Source: Candidatus Iainarchaeum sp.
GTDB lineage: Archaea > Iainarchaeota > Iainarchaeia > Iainarchaeales > GCA-2688035
Direction of reading: 5' to 3'
DNA length: 32,000 bases
NCBI GenBank assembly: GCA_028713935.1
Contig: JAQTNI010000006.1
Span: forward strand, 5,890-37,889
Below, in pieces: positions 4,528-23,629 of this stretch. Both the position numbers and the translations under genes were made by a program. The notes under the pieces were generated by a model that had not been told where the DNA came from, ran no database searches, and saw only the letters and a list, made by a program, of their open reading frames with translations. The first letter of the stretch is position 1; each line of letters begins with the position of its first letter.

Positions 4528-4583
4528 GTGTAAGTTCTTTTCTTTGGGAAACTTACACTTTCTTTTCTTCCAAGAAAAGAAAG
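4528..4583 (+). repeat. Two adjacent intercistronic hairpins (S12-S7 spacer). The second carries the cttttctt/aagaaaag core of the repeat family.
   Basis: gtgtaagtt (4528-4536) pairs with aacttacac (4550-4558). tttcttttctt (4559-4569) pairs with aagaaaagaaa (4572-4582), followed by gggag. Confidence 0.7.
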
Positions 4584-5273: not shown

Positions 5274-7466
5274 ATGACAAAAAGAGAAGACATGGTTGAA
5301 CTGGCAGAAAAAATGATGGCTGACAGGAAAAACATAAGAAACATTGGGACAGTGGCGCACATTGACCATGGAAAAACAACTTTGTCAGATGCGCTGATTG
5401 CAGCGGCAGGACTCATAAGCCAGGAAGTTGCAGGAACAGCGCAGATAATGGATTACGAGGACCAGGAACAGCAAAGAGGCATAACAATCAATGCCGCAAA
5501 CATTTCACTTGTTTTTGATTATGAAAACGAAAAAACACTCGTCAACCTAATTGACACGCCGGGGCATGTTGATTTTACAGGCGAAGTAATAAGGGCAATG
5601 AGGGCAGTTGACGGAGTAATTGTTGTTGTTGATGCAGTTGAAGGAATAATGCCACAAACTGAAACAGTGATAAGGCAGGCATTAAAGGAATATGTAAAGC
5701 CAGTGCTTTTCATAAACAAAGTTGACAGGCTGATTAACGAACTGAAAGTTTCAGAAGAAGAAATGCAAAAAAGATTTTTAAAAGTCATTGCGGCAATCAA
5801 CAGCCTTATCAGCAAAAATGCAGCAGGCGAATTCAAGGAAAAATGGCTAGTAAACCCAGCAAACGGAAGCGTTGCATTCGGCTCTGCAAAAAGAAAATGG
5901 GCCGTCTCAGTTCCGTATATGCAAAAATCAAAAATCAATTTCAAGCAGATTTATTCCTACCTTAAAAACGATGACCAAAAAAAGCTCGCCGAAATAAGCC
6001 CTGTTTATGAGGTTGTTTTGAAAATGGCGCGAGACCACCTGCCCAACCCCTTGGAAGCACAAAAATACAGGACCAAAAACATCTGGACAGGCGACCTTGA
6101 ATCAGAAATCGGAAAATCAATGCAGGCTTGCGATGAAAAAGGCGAAATAGCAATGATGATTACAGATGTAAGCGTAAATCCCCATGTTGGCGACATTGCC
6201 ACTGGCAGGATTTACTCTGGCACACTGAAAAACGGGGTTATTGTAAAACTCTTGGGAATGCAGAAAGAAATCAGGATACAAAAAGCAGGAGTTTTTATGG
6301 GGCCGGAATTTATTGATGTCACAAAGGCGGAAGCCGGCAATGTTGCGGCAATAGTCGGCTTGAAAGAAGTTTTTGCAGGCGAAACAATTTCCACAATTGA
6401 CATGAAGCAATTTGAAAGCTTCAAATCTTCTGTTGAACCAGTAATGACTGTCAGCGTAGAGGCAAAACAAACAAAAGACTTGCCAAAACTAATCCAGGTT
6501 TTAAGGCAGCTTTCAAAAGAAGACCCAAACCTCAGGACATCAATAAACCAGGAAACAGGAGAACACCTGCTTTCGGGAATGGGCGAGCTTCATCTTGATG
6601 TCAACAGGTACAGGATAGAAGAAACGCACAAAATTCCAATTGCAATGGGAGCGCCGATTGTTGTTTACAAAGAAGCAATTACAAAGCCATCGCAAACACT
6701 TGAAGGAATTTCCCCGAACAGGCACAACAAATTCAAAATGAGAGTGGAACCAGTTCCTGAAGAAATTTTGCTGAAGCTTGTTGAAGCAAAAATAGAGGCA
6801 AAAATAAGGCTAAAAGACAAGGAAATAATGTCAAGGCTGGAAGAATGCGGATTTGAAAAAGAAATGTCAAAAAAAACATGGTGCGTGCACAACAACAATT
6901 TGCTTGTAGATTCAACAAGGGGAATTGTGGCGCTGCATGAAATAAAAGAGCTTGTAATACAGGGCTTTGAAGACGCAATGGACGAAGGCCCTATTGCAAA
7001 AGAAAAATGCTTCGGGGTAATGGTAATACTTGAAGACGCAACTTTGCATGAGGACAGCATTCACCGCGGCCCTGCACAAGTACTGCCTGCAATTACAAGA
7101 ACAATTTTTGCAGGAATGCTTTCAACAGACCACATACTGCTTGAACCAAAACAATTATTGTCAATCACAGTGCCAAGCGATTACATGGGCGCAGTAACAA
7201 AAGAACTTGGGTCAAAAAGGACACAAATTTCAGAAATTCGGACAGAAGGCGACACAACAGTAATTGTTGCAAAAGCCCCTGTAAAAGAACTGATCGGCTT
7301 CAGCGCAGACATGCGCGGAGCAACCCAGGGAAGAGCAGTCTGGACAGCGGAATACGCAGGCTATGAAGTCCTGCCAAGAGAACTGCAAAAAGGCATAATC
7401 ACAGAAGTAAGAAAAAGAAAAGGCCTGGAACCAGAGCCAAAAGCATGGCAATTCTTCCTGGAGTAA
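5274..7466 (+). CDS. fusA: Elongation factor 2 (aEF-2)
   Basis: G-domain AHIDHGKTTLSD, DTPGHVDF, NKVDR, and the diphthamide-site context HEDSIHRGPAQ. ATG at 5274 is preferred over the TTG at 5226. Confidence 0.97.
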   Translation: MTKREDMVELAEKMMADRKNIRNIGTVAHIDHGKTTLSDALIAAAGLISQEVAGTAQIMDYEDQEQQRGITINAANISLVFDYENEKTLVNLIDTPGHVDFTGEVIRAMRAVDGVIVVVDAVEGIMPQTETVIRQALKEYVKPVLFINKVDRLINELKVSEEEMQKRFLKVIAAINSLISKNAAGEFKEKWLVNPANGSVAFGSAKRKWAVSVPYMQKSKINFKQIYSYLKNDDQKKLAEISPVYEVVLKMARDHLPNPLEAQKYRTKNIWTGDLESEIGKSMQACDEKGEIAMMITDVSVNPHVGDIATGRIYSGTLKNGVIVKLLGMQKEIRIQKAGVFMGPEFIDVTKAEAGNVAAIVGLKEVFAGETISTIDMKQFESFKSSVEPVMTVSVEAKQTKDLPKLIQVLRQLSKEDPNLRTSINQETGEHLLSGMGELHLDVNRYRIEETHKIPIAMGAPIVVYKEAITKPSQTLEGISPNRHNKFKMRVEPVPEEILLKLVEAKIEAKIRLKDKEIMSRLEECGFEKEMSKKTWCVHNNNLLVDSTRGIVALHEIKELVIQGFEDAMDEGPIAKEKCFGVMVILEDATLHEDSIHRGPAQVLPAITRTIFAGMLSTDHILLEPKQLLSITVPSDYMGAVTKELGSKRTQISEIRTEGDTTVIVAKAPVKELIGFSADMRGATQGRAVWTAEYAGYEVLPRELQKGIITEVRKRKGLEPEPKAWQFFLE

Positions 7467-7550
7467 AGCTTTTCTTTGCAGAGCAAAGAAAACCTTGGAA
7501 AAGAAACAATTTGCCTCTGGCAAATTGTGGTTCGCTTCGCTCACAAAAAA
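7467..7550 (+). repeat. Repeat-family copy immediately after the aEF-2 stop
   Basis: ttttctttgc (7470-7479) pairs with gcaaagaaaa (7483-7492), then ccttggaaaag. acaatttgcc (7506-7515) pairs with ggcaaattgt (7519-7528). Then ttcgcttcgc..aaaaaaa, which resembles the last hairpin of copies A and B. Confidence 0.65.
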
Positions 7551-19046: not shown

Positions 19047-20279
19047 ATGACGAACCCTAAGTTTATCTTAGTGGGCCTGTTTTTGATTTTGTTTTCTTTT
19101 TTCGGCCAACAGGTCTTTGCAGCAAACCCTGAATGCAGCGGGATTTCAATAGACACTTATACAATCAGGGTACTGGTTGGAAACTCCTCAATTGAAAGCT
19201 TTTCAATCAGGAATTCAAATTCTGAAAGGTTTTTTGTTGATTCCGCAGTTGCCTATGATTCAAGCCCGAATTTTGATGTCCAGACAAACAGTTATGACAG
19301 GGAAATACTGTCAGAAAGCACTGGCACAATTAATGTCAAGGTTACTGGCAAAATCTTTAACGAAGAACAGCAGGAAAGGGGTTTTTTGGAGCTTAGAGGG
19401 CATTTTTTAAGCGGAAAAACCTGTTCTTTGCAGGATATTGGCAAAAAGAGCTTCTCAGTAATCATTGAAAAAAAGCCTGTTGAAACAGCCCCTGAAAGCA
19501 TTATAATTCTTCCGGGCTGGAGAGGCAATCTCAGCAATTATTGCGGCAATATTGACTTTTTTGCCCCAAGCAAAATTGAAATTCAGGGCAACTCAGGGCA
19601 ATTTGAACTTACAATTGACAATAAGTCCGAGTACAGGACAACAATAAGGATTTCAGCAAAAAACAGCTCTGCAAACCCTTCATTGATTTCAGTGCCAAAA
19701 AAAAGCAGAATAACTGAAACAATAGAAATTCAAACCAATTCAGGCCAAACAGAAATTGAATATTTGATTGAAAATTCTGTTTGCAGCTTTACAAGAAAAA
19801 CAACAGTTTCCACTGTACAAACACAAACTCTTGCTGAAAGCATTGCAATAAGCACAATAGTGCCTGACACAAATGGCACAGGATACAAATTGGCTGTTTC
19901 ACTGCAAAACAAAACAGGCAAACCAATTTCAGGCAGCCTTGCGCTTAATTTGCCAGGCGATTGGCAGGCAGAAGGAACAAAAGAAATTGAATTGAATGCC
20001 TTTGAAACAAAAACAGCAATTTTCAATATAAGCCCAAAAGAAGAGCTGAAAAACAATTTTACTGGGAACGTTTCATTCAACAGCAATAGTGAAACAATTT
20101 TCACTCAATTTGAATTGAAGCCAAAGCAAAAAACAGGCATTCCCGCAATTGCAGGGACAATGCTTGCATTGCTTGGCAGCAATATATGGGCAGGATTGCT
20201 TGTGGTCTTCATAATCCTTGTTGCAATACTTTTCCTGCTGGCAAATTACAGCAGAAAACAAAGCAAAGTACTCTCATAA
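19047..20279 (+). CDS. Surface protein with signal peptide, repeated beta-sandwich (CARDB/NEW3-like) segments and a C-terminal hydrophobic anchor
   Basis: MTNPKFILVGLFLILFSFFGQQVFA signal. KLAVSLQNKTGKPISGSLALNLPGDWQAEG..ELNAFETKTAIFNISP resembles archaeal cell-surface domains. Hydrophobic C-terminus. ttatata at 19018-19024. The upstream ORF extension overlaps the previous gene. Confidence 0.8.
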   Translation: MTNPKFILVGLFLILFSFFGQQVFAANPECSGISIDTYTIRVLVGNSSIESFSIRNSNSERFFVDSAVAYDSSPNFDVQTNSYDREILSESTGTINVKVTGKIFNEEQQERGFLELRGHFLSGKTCSLQDIGKKSFSVIIEKKPVETAPESIIILPGWRGNLSNYCGNIDFFAPSKIEIQGNSGQFELTIDNKSEYRTTIRISAKNSSANPSLISVPKKSRITETIEIQTNSGQTEIEYLIENSVCSFTRKTTVSTVQTQTLAESIAISTIVPDTNGTGYKLAVSLQNKTGKPISGSLALNLPGDWQAEGTKEIELNAFETKTAIFNISPKEELKNNFTGNVSFNSNSETIFTQFELKPKQKTGIPAIAGTMLALLGSNIWAGLLVVFIILVAILFLLANYSRKQSKVLS

Positions 20280-20301
20280 CAAAGCAAAGCGAGGTGAAAA
20301 C

Positions 20302-20445
20302 ATGAAAAAAACAAGAACTGCAAAAGCAAGAAAAGCAGCTGTAAAAGCAAGAAGCACAAAAGCAAAAACACAGCCTGCTTTCTACAAAGCACCATTGAAC
20401 TTTGTTTCAAGCGGGTTCAACAGCTTTGTAAGCTATTTCAAGTAA
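20302..20445 (+). CDS. 47-aa highly basic small protein (MKKTRTAKARKAAVKARSTKAKTQ... then an aromatic/hydrophobic C-terminus)
   Basis: Strong GAGGTGA Shine-Dalgarno at 20291-20297, 4 nt before the ATG and 22 nt after the upstream stop. No homology recognisable by eye. Confidence 0.5.
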   Translation: MKKTRTAKARKAAVKARSTKAKTQPAFYKAPLNFVSSGFNSFVSYFK

Positions 20446-20448
20446 AAA

Positions 20449-20556
20449 GCCTTTTCTCTAAAGAGAAAAGCCTTGTTGCAAACCAAAAGGTTTGCGACGC
20501 GTCGCAAAGCAAAGCTTTGCAACGTGGGAAAAGAGGTTTTTCGCTTCGCGAAAAAA
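20449..20556 (+). repeat. Repeat-family copy A (five consecutive hairpins) directly after the 47-aa ORF
   Basis: cttttctct/agagaaaag, gcaaacc-aaaa-ggtttgc, the palindrome gcgacgcgtcgc, gcaaagc-aaa-gctttgc, tgggaaaag, and tttttcgc-ttc-gcgaaaaa. Confidence 0.8.
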
Positions 20557-20596
20557 GGTTTCAAATAATTAACCAAAATTTTACTTTTTAATTAAA

Positions 20597-20611
20597 GGGG
20601 GCTTTGCCCCC
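20597..20611. terminator. GC-rich hairpin between convergent genes (candidate bidirectional terminator)
   Basis: gggggc-ttt-gccccc, flanked by T-runs on both strands (tttgatttttt on +, tttaatt on -). Lies between the 47-aa ORF (+) and the SET gene (-). Confidence 0.5.
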
Positions 20612-20659
20612 AAATTTGATTTTTTGTTCAAACAAGGCAAAGACTGCCAGAAATTCTAC

Positions 20660-21184
20660 CTATAACTTCTTGTTGTTTTGCTTTCGAATTTTTTCTTTAA
20701 GGTATGGTGAAAAATACTCAAAATACCTGTCTTGCAGTTGTTTTAATTTCCAATCATCCATTGTAATTTTTCCACGGCAATTTTTACTCCCGCAGGCGCA
20801 TTTGAAATTAAATCTTGCAGAATTCAGGAAGGCATAATCCAAAGTAAGTTCTTCTCCCTTTTCAATATCCCTAATTGCGATTGTTGTTAGGGCATCCATA
20901 AAACCGCAATTGGGCTCGCATGAGTGATTGAGTGCCCCCAATTTTTTTGACTCCTCTGCTGTCGGAGGGCAAATGAAAAAGCCTTCATTTACTTGAATGC
21001 CAAGATGGCTGACAGTTTTGTCATATTCTTTAATCTCATTTTTTGGAATAATAAGCCCACCAAATACACAAATTATTTTTCCCTTGTGTATTCTCTCCGA
21101 TGCGCTCAAACCATATCCTGCTATCGTTGATTTGAAGGGTTTTGCTTTTGGCGTAATCCATCGGGCATTCCACTTTTTTTGCAT
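20660..21184 (-). CDS. SET-domain protein-lysine methyltransferase (~174 aa)
   Basis: NHSCEPNC, GEELTLDYAF and post-SET CACGSKNCRGK. ATG at 21184 has a TATA-like tttaaaatatt about 26 nt upstream on the minus strand. The ORF could extend to a TTG at 21271. Confidence 0.85.
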   Translation of the reverse strand: MQKKWNARWITPKAKPFKSTIAGYGLSASERIHKGKIICVFGGLIIPKNEIKEYDKTVSHLGIQVNEGFFICPPTAEESKKLGALNHSCEPNCGFMDALTTIAIRDIEKGEELTLDYAFLNSARFNFKCACGSKNCRGKITMDDWKLKQLQDRYFEYFSPYLKEKIRKQNNKKL

Positions 21185-21201
21185 ATATGCTCTTTTGCAC
21201 A

Positions 21202-21217
21202 AAAATATTTTAAATAG
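21202..21217 (-). promoter_or_regulatory. TATA-box-like element for the SET gene
   Basis: The minus strand reads ctatttaaaatatttt, centred ~26 nt upstream of ATG 21184. Confidence 0.4.
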
Positions 21218-21432
21218 GGCTCTGACAAGAATTGCGTGCAAAGTCAAGTTTGTGTTCAACTTTATGGGCAAAGCTTACACCAGGCAAGCCTTTAAAAACC
21301 TTTTTTTAAAGAATATTATAATTATAAATTGGTTTTGTCAATTAACTGAATAATTCAAAGTTTGGCAAACTGCATCGCAAGCGAGCCGCCTGTGATGTAA
21401 CTGCTGAAATCAAATTCCTGATTTTAGCGTTA

Positions 21433-21541
21433 GGCCTTTTCTTAAACATTGTAAAACCGAAAGGTTTTACGATGCCTCGCAAAGCAGTGCTTTGCAAGGA
21501 AGAAAAGCCCTGGGAAAAGAAGTTTTTTGCTTCGCAAAAAA
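21433..21541 (+). repeat. Repeat-family copy B in the SET/L3 divergent spacer, in the same orientation as copy A
   Basis: ggccttttctt ... gtaaaacc-gaaa-ggttttac ... gcaaagc-agt-gctttgc ... aagaaaagccc tgggaaaag ... ttttttgc-ttc-gcaaaaaa. Aligns with copy A, with paired (compensatory) changes in two stems. Confidence 0.8.
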
Positions 21542-21608
21542 CATTCTGCCTCAAAAAGTTCGCCTTACTGATAAATTTGGAAATTAGAATTTTGAAAGGT
21601 TTTTTTGA

Positions 21609-22772
21609 ATGGTTAGAAAATCAAGGCCTCATGCGGGAAGCAAGGGTTTTTACCCTCGCAAGCGCGCTGCAAAAGAAACCCCTGGTTTCAGCACTTTTAA
21701 ACCAGAGCAGGCAGAGGCAAAGGAATGCAGGCCATTGAATTTTTTGGTTTATAAGGCTGGCATGACCCATGTAATGGGAAGGGATGCGCACGCCAAGGGA
21801 ACAACTTTTGGGCAGGAAATTGCTTTGCCAGTGACTGTCTTAGAGGCGCCTTCACTAAAAGTTTTTGGCGCAAGGGCTTATAAAAAAATAAATTATGGAA
21901 CACAGCCGTTAATGGAAATTTCAATTGAAAAGCCCGACAAGGAATTTGAGAGAAGGCAGCATTCTTTCAAAAAGCATGGCAAGAAAAAAAGGGAAGGAAA
22001 AAAAGCCCCTGTAAAACAAAAAACAATTGAGGACTTTGAAGCCGCAAAAGCGGAAATTGTTGATTTGAAATTATTGGCTTATTCAAGGCCGAAAGAAACA
22101 GGCCTTGCAAAAAAAAAGCCGGATGTCCTTGAAATTGCGCTTTCAGGAAGCATTGATGCAAAAATTGCTTTTGCAAGGGAAAAAATCGGAAAAGAAATTT
22201 CTTTGCAGGATGTTTTCAGGGAAAACGATTTTGTTGATGCAAAGGCAGTTACAACAGGCAAGGGCACACAGGGGCCTGTTAAAAGGTTTGGAATAAAAAT
22301 CCAGGGAAGAAAAGCAAAAAGGACTAGGGCAGTGGGAAGCATCGGGCCTTGGCACCCTAACACTTTGATGTGGCAGGTTGCAAGGTCTGGCCAGACAGGT
22401 TATCAGAACAGGACTGAATTGAACAAAAAAATTGTAAAAATTTCCGCAAAGCCGGAAGAAATTTCCGAGATTAATCCTGCAAGCGGATTCAAGAATTATG
22501 GCTTGGTACAAACAAATTTTTTGCTTATTGGCGGAAGCGTTCCAGGCCCTGTTAAAAGGGCAATTGGCTTAAGGCATTCAATAAGGGCGCCTTCTTACAA
22601 GGCAAACAGGCACAAGCTGGAGGGAATTGATTTTATTGCAACTTCACGCAAGGCATCAAAAATCCATATGGATGTTTCCGCGCAAAAAATCAAGTTGGAA
22701 GAGGAAAAAAAAGTTGAGAAAAAAAGCGTTGCAGATGAAATAGCATCTGCGGTGAAAGGCGAAAAAAAGTAA
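21609..22772 (+). CDS. rpl3: 50S ribosomal protein L3 (uL3) with a Lys/Glu-rich C-terminal tail
   Basis: RPHAGSKGFYPRKRA, FLVYKAGMTHV, TKGKGTQGPVKRFGIK, GSIGPWHP. Confidence 0.97.
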   Translation: MVRKSRPHAGSKGFYPRKRAAKETPGFSTFKPEQAEAKECRPLNFLVYKAGMTHVMGRDAHAKGTTFGQEIALPVTVLEAPSLKVFGARAYKKINYGTQPLMEISIEKPDKEFERRQHSFKKHGKKKREGKKAPVKQKTIEDFEAAKAEIVDLKLLAYSRPKETGLAKKKPDVLEIALSGSIDAKIAFAREKIGKEISLQDVFRENDFVDAKAVTTGKGTQGPVKRFGIKIQGRKAKRTRAVGSIGPWHPNTLMWQVARSGQTGYQNRTELNKKIVKISAKPEEISEINPASGFKNYGLVQTNFLLIGGSVPGPVKRAIGLRHSIRAPSYKANRHKLEGIDFIATSRKASKIHMDVSAQKIKLEEEKKVEKKSVADEIASAVKGEKK

Positions 22773-22805
22773 GGCCTTTTCTTGAAAAGAAAAGCCCTGG
22801 GAAAA
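22773..22805 (+). repeat. Minimal repeat-family copy C filling the L3-L4 spacer
   Basis: ggccttttctt-gaa-aagaaaagccc-tgggaaaa. Both arms are identical to the outer arms of copy B. Confidence 0.75.
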
Positions 22806-22807
22806 AA

Positions 22808-23629
22808 ATGTTTATTGTGATGATTATGAAAGCGAGTGTTTTTGCATTGGATGGAAAAAAACTGCATGACATTGAATTGCCAAGGGTTTTTGAAACAGCA
22901 TTCCACCCTGAACTCATAAAAAGGGCTGTTTTAAGTTGCCAGTCTGCAAGGCTGCAGCCAAAAGGCGCTTTTGTAATGGCTGGAAGAATGAACAGTGCAG
23001 AATACAGGGGAGCAAGAAGGCTTCCAACGCACGAAAGGTCAATCAATGTTGGCCATGCAAGGCTGCCAAGGCTCAAGAACAGGAGCGGGCTGCTTTATGG
23101 AAGAGTTGCAAGGGTTCCGCAGGCAGTGGGGGGAACAAGCCCTCATGCGCCGAAAGTTGAAAAAAAATTGTGGGAAAGAATAAACAAAAAGGAAAAAAGA
23201 AAAGCGCTTGAATCCGCAATTGCGGCTTGTGCAAAAAAAGAGCTTGTGTTTAAAAGGCATTCTTTGGATGAAAAGGTTTCATTGCCTGTTATTGTTGAAG
23301 ACAAATTTGAGGACCTGAAAAAAACAAAAGAAGTGATTGCTGTTTTGGCTGCCTTGAATCTTGGAAAAGACTTGGAAAATGCAAGGGCAAAGCGCAGGAG
23401 AAAATCCGGAAAAGGCAAAAAGCGCGGCCGAAAAGTAAAACAGAAAAAAAGCGTTTTGATTGTTACAAAAAACAATTCGCCTGTTTATAAGGCGGCAAGG
23501 AATATTCTTGGAATTGATGTTTGTGAATTAAGAAACCTTAATGCGGAGCTTTTGGCTCCGGGCTGCCTTGCTGGAAGGCTGGCTGTCTGGACTGAATCAG
23601 CAATAAAAGGCCTGGAAGCAAAAGTGTAA
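22808..23629 (+). CDS. rpl4: 50S ribosomal protein L4 (uL4)
   Basis: VFALDGKK..IELP N-terminus, GKGKKRGRK loop, and position after L3. The true start may be the ATG at 22820 or 22826. Confidence 0.95.
   Translation: MFIVMIMKASVFALDGKKLHDIELPRVFETAFHPELIKRAVLSCQSARLQPKGAFVMAGRMNSAEYRGARRLPTHERSINVGHARLPRLKNRSGLLYGRVARVPQAVGGTSPHAPKVEKKLWERINKKEKRKALESAIAACAKKELVFKRHSLDEKVSLPVIVEDKFEDLKKTKEVIAVLAALNLGKDLENARAKRRRKSGKGKKRGRKVKQKKSVLIVTKNNSPVYKAARNILGIDVCELRNLNAELLAPGCLAGRLAVWTESAIKGLEAKV

Follow-up and report, generated by a model that had tools for sequence, protein, structure and literature searches.

The locus and its two repeats

The window analysed here is a 32,000-nucleotide (nt) stretch of Candidatus Iainarchaeum sp. 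(GTDB lineage Iainarchaeota; contig JAQTNI010000006.1, positions 5,890 to 37,889), with a G+C content of 41%. Its only minus-strand gene, coding for a SET-domain protein of 174 amino acids (aa; 20660..21184), has a structured repeat on either side, namely copy A (20446..20562, plus strand), which follows a plus-strand open reading frame (ORF) of 47 aa, and copy B (21431..21545, plus strand), which lies 67 nt upstream of the start codon of the gene for ribosomal protein L3. An earlier note, made from the sequence alone, had described these as two covarying multi-hairpin repeats that bracket the SET gene. It had read them as elements resembling repetitive extragenic palindromes (REPs) or MITEs (miniature transposable elements with inverted repeats), whose recombination might have captured the SET gene, as a small RNA family or, for copy B, as a leader of the L3 operon. 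We found that A and B very probably belong to a modular family of dispersed, structured repeats between the genes of Iainarchaeum-type DPANN archaea, so that REP/MITE-like elements proved to be the right general class. The best explanation of the whole, to which we assign a probability of roughly 0.6, is that they are two members of this modular family acting as transcribed gene punctuation.

Copies A and B form a pair of direct repeats, 985 nt apart and with the same orientation, and constitute the only long mutual matches within the window. Their alignment with MAFFT (20440-20570 versus 21425-21555) has a mean column identity of 79% and two indels. The predicted folds, at -49.6 kcal/mol for A (z -5.5) and -50.3 kcal/mol for B (z -7.3), are more stable than all 200 dinucleotide shuffles of the respective copy, and they beat such shuffles on both strands (z -5.5 to -7.3). 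The compensatory differences between the two copies are exact: in the second hairpin GCAAACC/GGTTTGC of A (20478-20495) is replaced by GTAAAACC/GGTTTTAC in B (21451-21470), and in the last hairpin the pair C20542-G20550 of A corresponds to T21528-A21536 of B. The short ORFs overlapping A and B match no protein family and, as had been noted earlier, no called gene explains either copy.

Copy A, which scores 73.2 bits with our core covariance model CM R1, is a composite of four hairpins (hp1 to hp4) and a purine box in the order hp1-hp2-hp3-box-hp4, an arrangement that we call A-type. The first hairpin, GCCTTTTCTC-TAAA-GAGAAAAGCC (20449..20472), has one C.C mismatch, a pyrimidine-rich 5' arm with a U-tract and a purine-rich 3' arm. 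It is followed by hp2, GTTGCAAACC-AAAA-GGTTTGCGAC (20475..20498), with a conserved U.G wobble, and by hp3, (GCG)TCGCAAAGC-AAA-GCTTTGCAA(CGT) (20499..20525), with a conserved C.A mismatch. The purine box, TGGGAAAAGAG (20525..20535), is predicted to be single-stranded and precedes hp4, TTTTTCGC-TTC-GCGAAAAA (20537..20555). All of these parts are on the plus strand, as are those of copy B (73.1 bits).

In the latter, B-type arrangement, the two arms of hp1, GGCCTTTTCTT (21433..21443) and AAGAAAAGCC(C) (21500..21510), enclose hp2 (21447-21474) and hp3 (21475-21499), which form a 55-nt double-hairpin module in the hp1 loop (21447..21499). The nested part is predicted to form a three-way junction and is succeeded by the purine box CTGGGAAAAGAA (21510..21521), again predicted to be single-stranded, and by hp4, GTTTTTTGC-TTC-GCAAAAAAC (21522..21542). 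In correction of the earlier note, the two copies are not collinear: hp1 of A is self-closed, with hp2-hp3 after it, whereas the hp1 arms of B surround hp2-hp3. The two indels of the alignment reflect this differing placement and are not noise.

A modular build

A and B are not the sole members of the family in the window. A BLAST search of the window with copy B found a minimal unit in the L3-L4 spacer (22773..22807, plus strand), which begins directly 3' of the L3 stop codon and consists of hp1 (GGCCTTTTCTT-GAA-AAGAAAAGCC) and a box (CTGGGAAAAAA), without hp2-hp3 and hp4. The longest L4 ORF starts at 22808 (MFIVMIMKAS...), but translation probably begins with the ATG of position 22826 (MKASVFALDGKK), which has the Shine-Dalgarno sequence GTGAT before it, and the minimal unit is therefore probably fully intergenic. 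A further unit, E1 (7467..7544, plus strand), follows immediately on the stop of a gene for 746 aa that ends at 7466, and comprises hp1 (7470-7492), the box CTTGGAAAAGAA (7494-7505), hp4 (7506-7528) and a tail, GGTTCGCTTCGCTCAC (7529-7544). In yet another spacer the plus strand carries an hp1-like hairpin, CTTTCTTTTCT-TCCA-AGAAAAGAAAG, with a TTCTTTTCTTTGGGAAACTTACAC module before it (4535..4583), and the same module is present at locus L036 of another genome. In total, the 32-kb window has at least four full units in addition to related modules, and five units in it are all on the gene strand. Two smaller modules recur beside these hairpins: TTCTTTT(CTT)GGGAAACTTRCAC adjoins hp1-like hairpins in the window (4537-4558) and in L036 (at about 3340), while GTGGTTCGCT(T/G)CGCTCAC is conserved 3' of hp4 in the window (7529-7544) and in L027, L034 and L048, which are from different genomes.

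The backbone of the family can hence be described as hp1, with a U-tract as its 5' arm (GCCUUUUCUU), then the single-stranded purine box YTGGGAAAAGA (YUGGGAAAAGA as RNA), then hp4, which always starts immediately 3' of the box, and sometimes a tail. The hp2-hp3 module is an optional 55-nt insert with two possible positions 10 nt apart, either 3' of hp1 (A-type) or within the hp1 loop (B-type), and in every copy it faces the same way with respect to the backbone. It is bounded by the terminal inverted repeats CCTTGCAAA/TTTGCAAGG, just as the hp1 arms bound the B-type unit. As hp3 comes close to being the reverse complement of hp2, in the manner of a REP dimer, the U.G wobble of hp2 and the C.A mismatch of hp3 occupy mirror positions. 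The modules hp1, box, hp2-hp3 and hp4 and the tail GTGGTTCGCTTCGCTCAC are combined into various mosaics, including tandem ones.

Distribution and covariation across genomes

We scanned the GTDB representative genomes once with the 18-base hp3 pattern TCGCAAAGCNNNGCTTTGCAA. This recovered 51 loci (numbered with the prefix L), of which about 21 are from DPANN archaea and have the same hp2-hp3 module with recognizable flanks. The representatives matched do not include the genome of the window itself. Iainarchaeum DeMMO3_25 has seven exact-pattern copies on six contigs; other archaeal copies come from CAZXIC, JAQTPU, JAPLVT, JACQJF and two Aenigmatarchaeota, and the hp3 hairpin is found in other DPANN archaea as well. 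With CM R1 the archaeal copies score 57-76 bits, except for one that reaches 47 bits, and a few extra copies emerged.

The remaining matches of the scan are bacterial and are due to chance or REP-like. The bacterial loci include L015, L016 and L032 (Thiotrichaceae BB3), L030 and L040 (Planctomycetes) and L035, where TCGCAAAGC-NNN-GCTTTGCAA is embedded in arrays of similar xxAAGC-NNN-GCTTxx hairpins, such as CCCAAGC-AGA-GCTTGGGAAC. These REP-like families have a hairpin identical to the archaeal hp3, for which convergence and a shared superfamily are both possible.

Across 22 hp2-hp3 cores, which come from about 12 genomes, 93.6% of the cells pair, versus 83% upon shuffling. Nine pairs have changed on both sides, none of 500 shuffles reach the observed score, and no slid register of the pairing comes near it. 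In L036b, a copy found only by the model, hp3 is maintained through compensatory changes (GTGAAGC/GCTTCAC) and the C.A mismatch is kept. In the case of hp4, 17 copies, about half of them chosen for a perfect stem, contain 15 distinct 5' arms, with 99% pairing versus 67% when the 3' arms are shuffled. Thus hp2, hp3 and hp4 are imperfect palindromes of 19-28 nt with compensatory variation, comparable in this respect to REP hairpins. Together with the shuffle z-scores and the exact differences between A and B, this bears out the original observation that the two repeats are real, structured and covarying. An alternative fold of hp2-hp3 into a single long (cruciform) hairpin is the less favoured one, as L006, L012, L021, L024, L041 and L043 keep two separate hairpins despite having hp2 and hp3 of unrelated sequence. 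Apart from the symmetric U.G/C.A pair, the sense strand has about nine extra G.U pairs as against no extra A.C mismatches. In conjunction with the sense orientation and stop-codon adjacency described below, this excess argues that the folding molecule is probably the sense transcript or the sense single strand.

The relationships of the copies cut across genomes. The nearest relatives of copy B are B-type copies from another species, L005 (107/120 identical) and L007 (106/121), and those of copy A are the A-type copies L036a and L029 from other metagenome-assembled genomes (MAGs); in full-length comparisons these two come only 6th and 8th in each other's rankings. Since each is nearer to copies in other genomes, A and B represent different subfamilies and not a local duplication. 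Copies become similar abruptly at the first base of hp1, and the similarity ends either after the box or after hp4, with unrelated flanks beyond; the right end is thus modular. B-type copies are 82-92% identical between species and 85-97% identical within one genome, with the L3 proteins being 87% identical, a pattern that points to probable constraint on the sequence and not to a recent burst. L038 and L048, two copies from one genome, are nearly identical (96.6% over 118 nt) with unrelated flanks.

Placement relative to genes

The units are closely associated with gene ends. In the window minimal unit, E1 and copy A, and likewise in L007, L008, L034 and L054, hp1 starts 0-6 nt 3' of the stop codon of a substantial ORF, and other units stand in tandem, 3' of another unit. 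Units in spacers between co-directional genes are in sense orientation in 11 of 11 cases (L007, L008, L013, L021, L024, L036a, L038, L041, L054, and E1 and the minimal unit of the window; one-sided p about 5e-4). Among these spacers, that of L007 runs from a GltD-like gene to HMG-CoA reductase, the gene downstream of L008 is pyruvate:ferredoxin oxidoreductase alpha-like (as identified by eye), L038 is in the S28e-L24e spacer and L054 in the L23-L2 spacer. Five of the gene pairs were checked with Pfam, which bore out one or both flanking genes in each. In the window L3-L4 spacer and the S28e-L24e spacer of L038, the Shine-Dalgarno sequence of the next cistron follows the unit directly, with no room for a promoter, which argues for at least partial read-through.

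Copy A forms the 3' element of the small ORF of 47 aa (20302..20445, plus strand), which has the Shine-Dalgarno sequence GAGGTGA 6 nt upstream and ends with TAA at 20443-20445; copy A begins 3 nt after this stop. The encoded peptide is Lys/Ala-rich (MKKTRTAKARKAAVKARSTKAK...) and has no Pfam match. Just upstream of this ORF an exact direct repeat, AACAAAGCAAAG, occurs twice (at 20257 and 20278). Copy B, on the other hand, follows a conserved leader-like block, which is described further below.

Orthologous sites in relatives

To compare orthologous sites we used relatives ordered by L3 identity: L064 (DeMMO3_25; 87%), L065 (77%), L054 (70%) and L066 (64%); a metagenome scan with L3 found three relatives. 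Upstream of L3, where the window has the B-type unit, the contig of L064 starts inside a B-like element (1-45), of which the hp1 3' arm, box and hp4 are present and identical to B at 40 of 44 positions. At the same site L065 displays an element X, 25 nt of spacing, the leader block, and then hp1 and box without hp2-hp3, while L054 and L066 have the leader block only. The comparison between the window and L065 thus identifies hp2-hp3 as an indel inside the hp1 loop at an orthologous site. The L3-L4 spacer contains the minimal unit in the window, a degenerate remnant in L064 and no unit in L066, nor in L065 and L054, where it is 4 nt and 9 nt long. The L23-L2 spacer has a full unit in L054 and none in the window, L064 and L066; none was seen in L065. 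Presence/absence differences of the kind known from MITEs are therefore found at three orthologous sites (L3-L4, L23-L2 and upstream of L3), and units are gained and lost as species diverge.

Two of these public contigs start inside a repeat unit, namely L064 (1-45, hp1 3' arm) and L065 (1-60, hp3), which suggests that the repeats break short-read MAG assemblies. In practical terms, MAG contigs end inside the repeats and spurious ORF calls result.

Transcribed gene punctuation as a proposed role

We propose that the units are transcribed as 3'-untranslated (3'-UTR) or intercistronic RNA and act as gene punctuation, akin to the REPs and bacterial interspersed mosaic elements (BIMEs) of bacteria. 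Their U-tracts would cause partial termination or pausing of the aCPSF1 type, and their hairpins would shield the upstream message from exonucleases, and perhaps the downstream message too, after a cut in the purine box. The outcome would be a tuning of relative expression within and between operons. The hairpin-box-hairpin layout would fit an endonucleolytic processing site, with products capped by protective stems, and equally a REP-like stabilization of the upstream message. Taken by itself, the functional part of this proposal, transcription as a 3'-UTR or intercistronic repeat, is tentative, and we would place it somewhat short of an even chance.

The case for the U-tracts comes from their position. 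The archaeal termination and aCPSF1-binding signal consists of U4-tracts and needs no hairpin (PMC8716108), and the 5' arms of hp1 (CUUUUCU; CUUUUCUU) and of hp4 (U5-U6) place tracts of four or more U soon after stop codons. Just 3' of the stop, other window genes too carry plain T-tracts, and the U-tract reading draws on both observations. The units resemble the U-tract (aCPSF1/FttA) terminators of archaea in having U4-U6 just after stops (PMC8716108). They differ from them in that these terminators need no hairpin and have no conserved sequence beyond the U-tract, whereas here the U-tract is part of a conserved hairpin followed by a conserved purine box, and also in that some units precede co-transcribed cistrons and require read-through. 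A Shine-Dalgarno sequence directly 3' of the unit, as in the L3-L4 and S28e-L24e spacers, indicates that units there are not efficient terminators and that any termination is only partial.

The closest known parallels are the bacterial REP, BIME and REPIN (REP doublets forming hairpins) elements. Bacterial REPs lie downstream of ORFs, contain G.T pairs, form dimers and can have dimers inserted inside palindromes (PMC3733652). The present family shares with them short imperfect palindromes that are extragenic, dispersed and multi-copy (as seen for DeMMO3_25 and the window) and situated mostly just 3' of ORFs between co-directional or convergent genes (PMC3733652). It also shares G.T pairs hinting at an RNA function, inverted doublets (here hp2 with hp3) and mosaic combination with other short motifs. 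The CGTC-1 dimers of H. neapolitanus, inserted in another palindrome (PMC3733652), are mirrored by hp2-hp3 in the hp1 loop, and the roles proposed for bacterial REPs include termination and mRNA stabilization (PMC3733652). Further, hp3 is preceded by CCTC, CGTC or TGTC, the same variants as in the tag of the so-called CGTC REPs, or else by CATC. In those REPs, however, stems have 8-9 bp, loops 4-5 nt and a CCA tail is present, while hp3 has an exact stem of 7 bp (11-13 bp across the C.A mismatch) and a 3-nt loop, and its tetranucleotide is paired, with the T in a pair and the C in the C.A mismatch. Other differences are the archaeal DPANN host, the absence of a GTAG tag at any hairpin, the strictly sense orientation, the conserved single-stranded purine box, the U-tract arm and the copy number, which is apparently in the tens per genome versus hundreds for REPs. 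No RAYT (Y1 transposase) gene was found in the window or at the loci inspected. The family is accordingly REP/BIME-like without being a member of the REP/BIME/REPIN group.

Comparable MITEs (Correia/NEMIS, ERIC and RUP) are likewise small, non-coding, delimited by terminal inverted repeats, folded if transcribed, near genes and polymorphic for presence. Unlike them, the 55-nt insert is far smaller and of constant orientation, and no parent insertion sequence (IS) is known for this family. No consistent target-site duplication appears at the A- and B-type junctions that were read, where only 1-3 nt of A/T-rich sequence is seen. Generic REP-like palindromes have been reported by RepRanger in Euryarchaeota and Crenarchaeota (PMC12306157); that survey is a generic hairpin count and describes no DPANN, modular family, stop adjacency or nested double hairpin. 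Our literature search found nothing on such elements in Iainarchaeota or other DPANN. Rfam 15 gave no match in the whole window at the gathering threshold; an E-value scan of 20200-21700 returned only sub-threshold chance matches, and a scan for tRNA and tmRNA genes found none.

By reading the sequence, C/D-box and H/ACA small RNAs (sRNAs) were rejected (no C/D boxes and no consistent ACA), as were K-turns (none seen), CRISPR repeats and origin recognition box (ORB) or dif sites. Integron attC sites were likewise rejected, as there is no R'/R'' core and units are inside ribosomal-protein operons. The purine box was rejected as a Shine-Dalgarno sequence, as a separate GGTGAT/GGAGGT Shine-Dalgarno follows downstream.

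Several points weigh against the punctuation proposal. Transcription, 3' ends and processing are all predicted from genomic sequence. The hp3 sample was ascertained by a fixed pattern, so that the invariance of the hp3 stem is no evidence, and genomes were sampled as 8-kb fragments, to which the counts and orientations apply. Copy B, L049, L036b and L048 are in divergent spacers without an upstream protein gene, and the units of the L3-L4 and S28e-L24e spacers sit directly 5' of the Shine-Dalgarno of the next cistron. A scan for bacterial-type terminators, a type that is no model for archaea, detected the geometry of a hairpin plus T-tail solely on the antisense strand (hp1 and hp4). The conserved C.A mismatch of hp3 would be odd in a purely stabilizing RNA hairpin, and hp2-hp3, with its near-perfect two-fold symmetry, is equally compatible with an origin or mechanism at the level of DNA.

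A more specific version of the proposal, which we consider unlikely, is that the hp1-box-hp4 unit, including the optional insert that makes a three-way junction, is a dedicated RNA gene-punctuation signal of genome-reduced DPANN. In this version the box would be read by a factor (aCPSF1/FttA, another RNase or an RNA-binding protein) to set mRNA 3' ends or cut polycistronic transcripts, and the unit would have spread like a REPIN, through a mechanism undescribed in Archaea.

DPANN genomes are very small and tightly packed, and here covarying sense repeats of 35-120 nt follow many genes, including those of ribosomal-protein operons; conservation of such a repeat in genomes of this kind makes it likely to be functional. 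The family offers a sequence-defined handle on mRNA 3' ends and operon stoichiometry in uncultivated archaea, which are almost unstudied in this regard, and also on the spread of REP-like elements in Archaea.

Alternative explanations

The main rival is that the elements are purely selfish DNA without RNA function, tiny MITE- or REPIN-like entities of which the 55-nt hp2-hp3 module, and perhaps the entire composite, would be moved in trans by a transposase that works on hairpins of single-stranded DNA (for example a Y1 enzyme of IS200/IS605 type or one like RAYT). It accounts well for mobility: the terminal inverted repeats and REP-doublet architecture of hp2-hp3, its occurrence at two positions relative to hp1 and its presence or absence in the hp1 loop between the window and L065 are all in its favour. 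So are the variable occupancy of spacers among related genomes, the near-identity of L038 and L048 in unrelated flanks and the assembly breaks inside elements. It does not account for the orientation, spacing and between-species conservation of the units, given the uniformly sense orientation in co-directional spacers, the fixed distance to stop codons and the constant orientation of hp2-hp3 relative to the backbone. Moreover, identity between species equals that within a genome, which indicates purifying selection over recent bursts; there is no visible target-site duplication, and no transposase gene occurs in the window or the loci inspected. Two pattern scans of IMG/VR viral contigs (hp3; hp1 3' arm plus box) likewise recovered no related copy but only unrelated or coding chance matches. 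On balance we hold this rival to be improbable.

It is a good deal less probable still that the repeats are stand-alone sRNA genes, a multi-copy family with its own promoters, a reading close to the small RNA family of the earlier note. Such genes would be in keeping with the stable folds of several covarying hairpins, about 70-120 nt long, with the conserved single-stranded box, which might serve as a seed or bind a protein, and with the copies in divergent spacers. However, hp1 often starts 0-6 nt after a stop, which leaves no room for a B recognition element (BRE)/TATA promoter; units are arranged back to back and directly 5' of the next Shine-Dalgarno, and no Rfam family matches.

The suggestion that B serves the L3 (S10-like) operon alone, as a regulatory 5' leader, with A being its chance relative, is largely refuted by the dispersed copies. 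The location of B near the L3 start and the retention of hp1 3' arm, box and hp4 at the same site in L064 agree with it. On the other side, B-type copies 82-92% identical to it are found at unrelated loci, including the GltD-like/HMG-CoA reductase spacer, 5' of the pyruvate:ferredoxin oxidoreductase alpha-like gene and in the S28e-L24e spacer. L3 is not preceded by an element in L054 or L066, L065 has hp1 and box alone, and what is conserved at this locus is a different sequence (21345-21432). The element is therefore neither confined to nor conserved at the 5' end of one operon, and this suggestion retains very little probability.

Equally improbable is that a dimeric protein binds the palindromes as duplex DNA, in the way of operators or of chromatin or topology sites, and that they are not folded nucleic acid. 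Bacterial REPs do bind gyrase and integration host factor (IHF), hp3 (GCAAAGC-N3-GCTTTGC) has a conserved sequence with a free loop, and the module is two-fold symmetric. Yet hp2, hp4 and in part hp1 vary freely while keeping their complementarity, which is expected from selection on hairpins and not from half-site recognition, and neither the G.U excess on one strand nor the orientation bias relative to genes suits a DNA site.

The idea that A and B arose by local duplication, or by recombination that inserted or captured a SET cassette, is contradicted: although they are same-orientation direct repeats 985 nt apart flanking the only minus-strand gene, their architectures differ, each is nearer to copies in other genomes, the conserved L3-leader block separates SET from B, L065 has the order element - leader - element - L3 without SET, and the SET homologues occur in other contexts without repeats.

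The leader-like block and the SET gene

Between the SET gene and copy B is a plus-strand segment (21317..21432) that contains an AT-rich box and a conserved leader-like or small-RNA-like block, GGCAAACTGCAT...GATGTAA.TGCT.AAATC...CTGATTTTAGC. The block itself (21345-21432) is conserved 5' of L3 in L054, L065 and L066, relatives without SET there. The segment is made up of a TATA-like AT-rich box, TTATAATTATAAATTGG, followed by GGCAAACTGCAT-[variable hairpin]-GRGATGTAA.TGCT.AAATC..CTGATTTT. In the relatives it is found at 3790-3915 of L054, about 75-135 of L065 and about 5870-5930 of L066, making four Iainarchaeota with 64-100% L3 identity in all. The arms of its hairpin show compensatory changes (GGAG/CTCC versus AGCG/CGCC), and it has no Rfam match. 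It could be a 5' leader of the L3 operon or a small RNA.

The presence of this block means that no repeat stands at the right-hand junction of the SET segment. Hence, while A and B do lie on either side of SET in the same orientation, the bracketing that had been noted fails on the side of B, where the leader-like block (~21317-21432) intervenes. The comparison of syntenic loci that had been suggested for the SET cassette likewise turned up no relative in which SET is flanked by a repeat pair, and L065, which lacks SET, retains its elements. That SET stands between the two copies is incidental.

The SET gene does not belong to the repeat family, and a GC hairpin at 20597-20611 provides it with a terminator of its own. 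Its closest homologues (78%, 63% and 61% identical) are in unrelated neighbourhoods, and the covariance model found no repeats at these three loci. Approximately 150 nt 5' of SET (21185-21330 of the window, 545-735 of L059), including a promoter-like box, ATTTAAAATATTTT, are conserved at the locus of the 78% identical homologue, where the neighbouring genes differ. On this comparison, SET seems to travel along with the region upstream of it.

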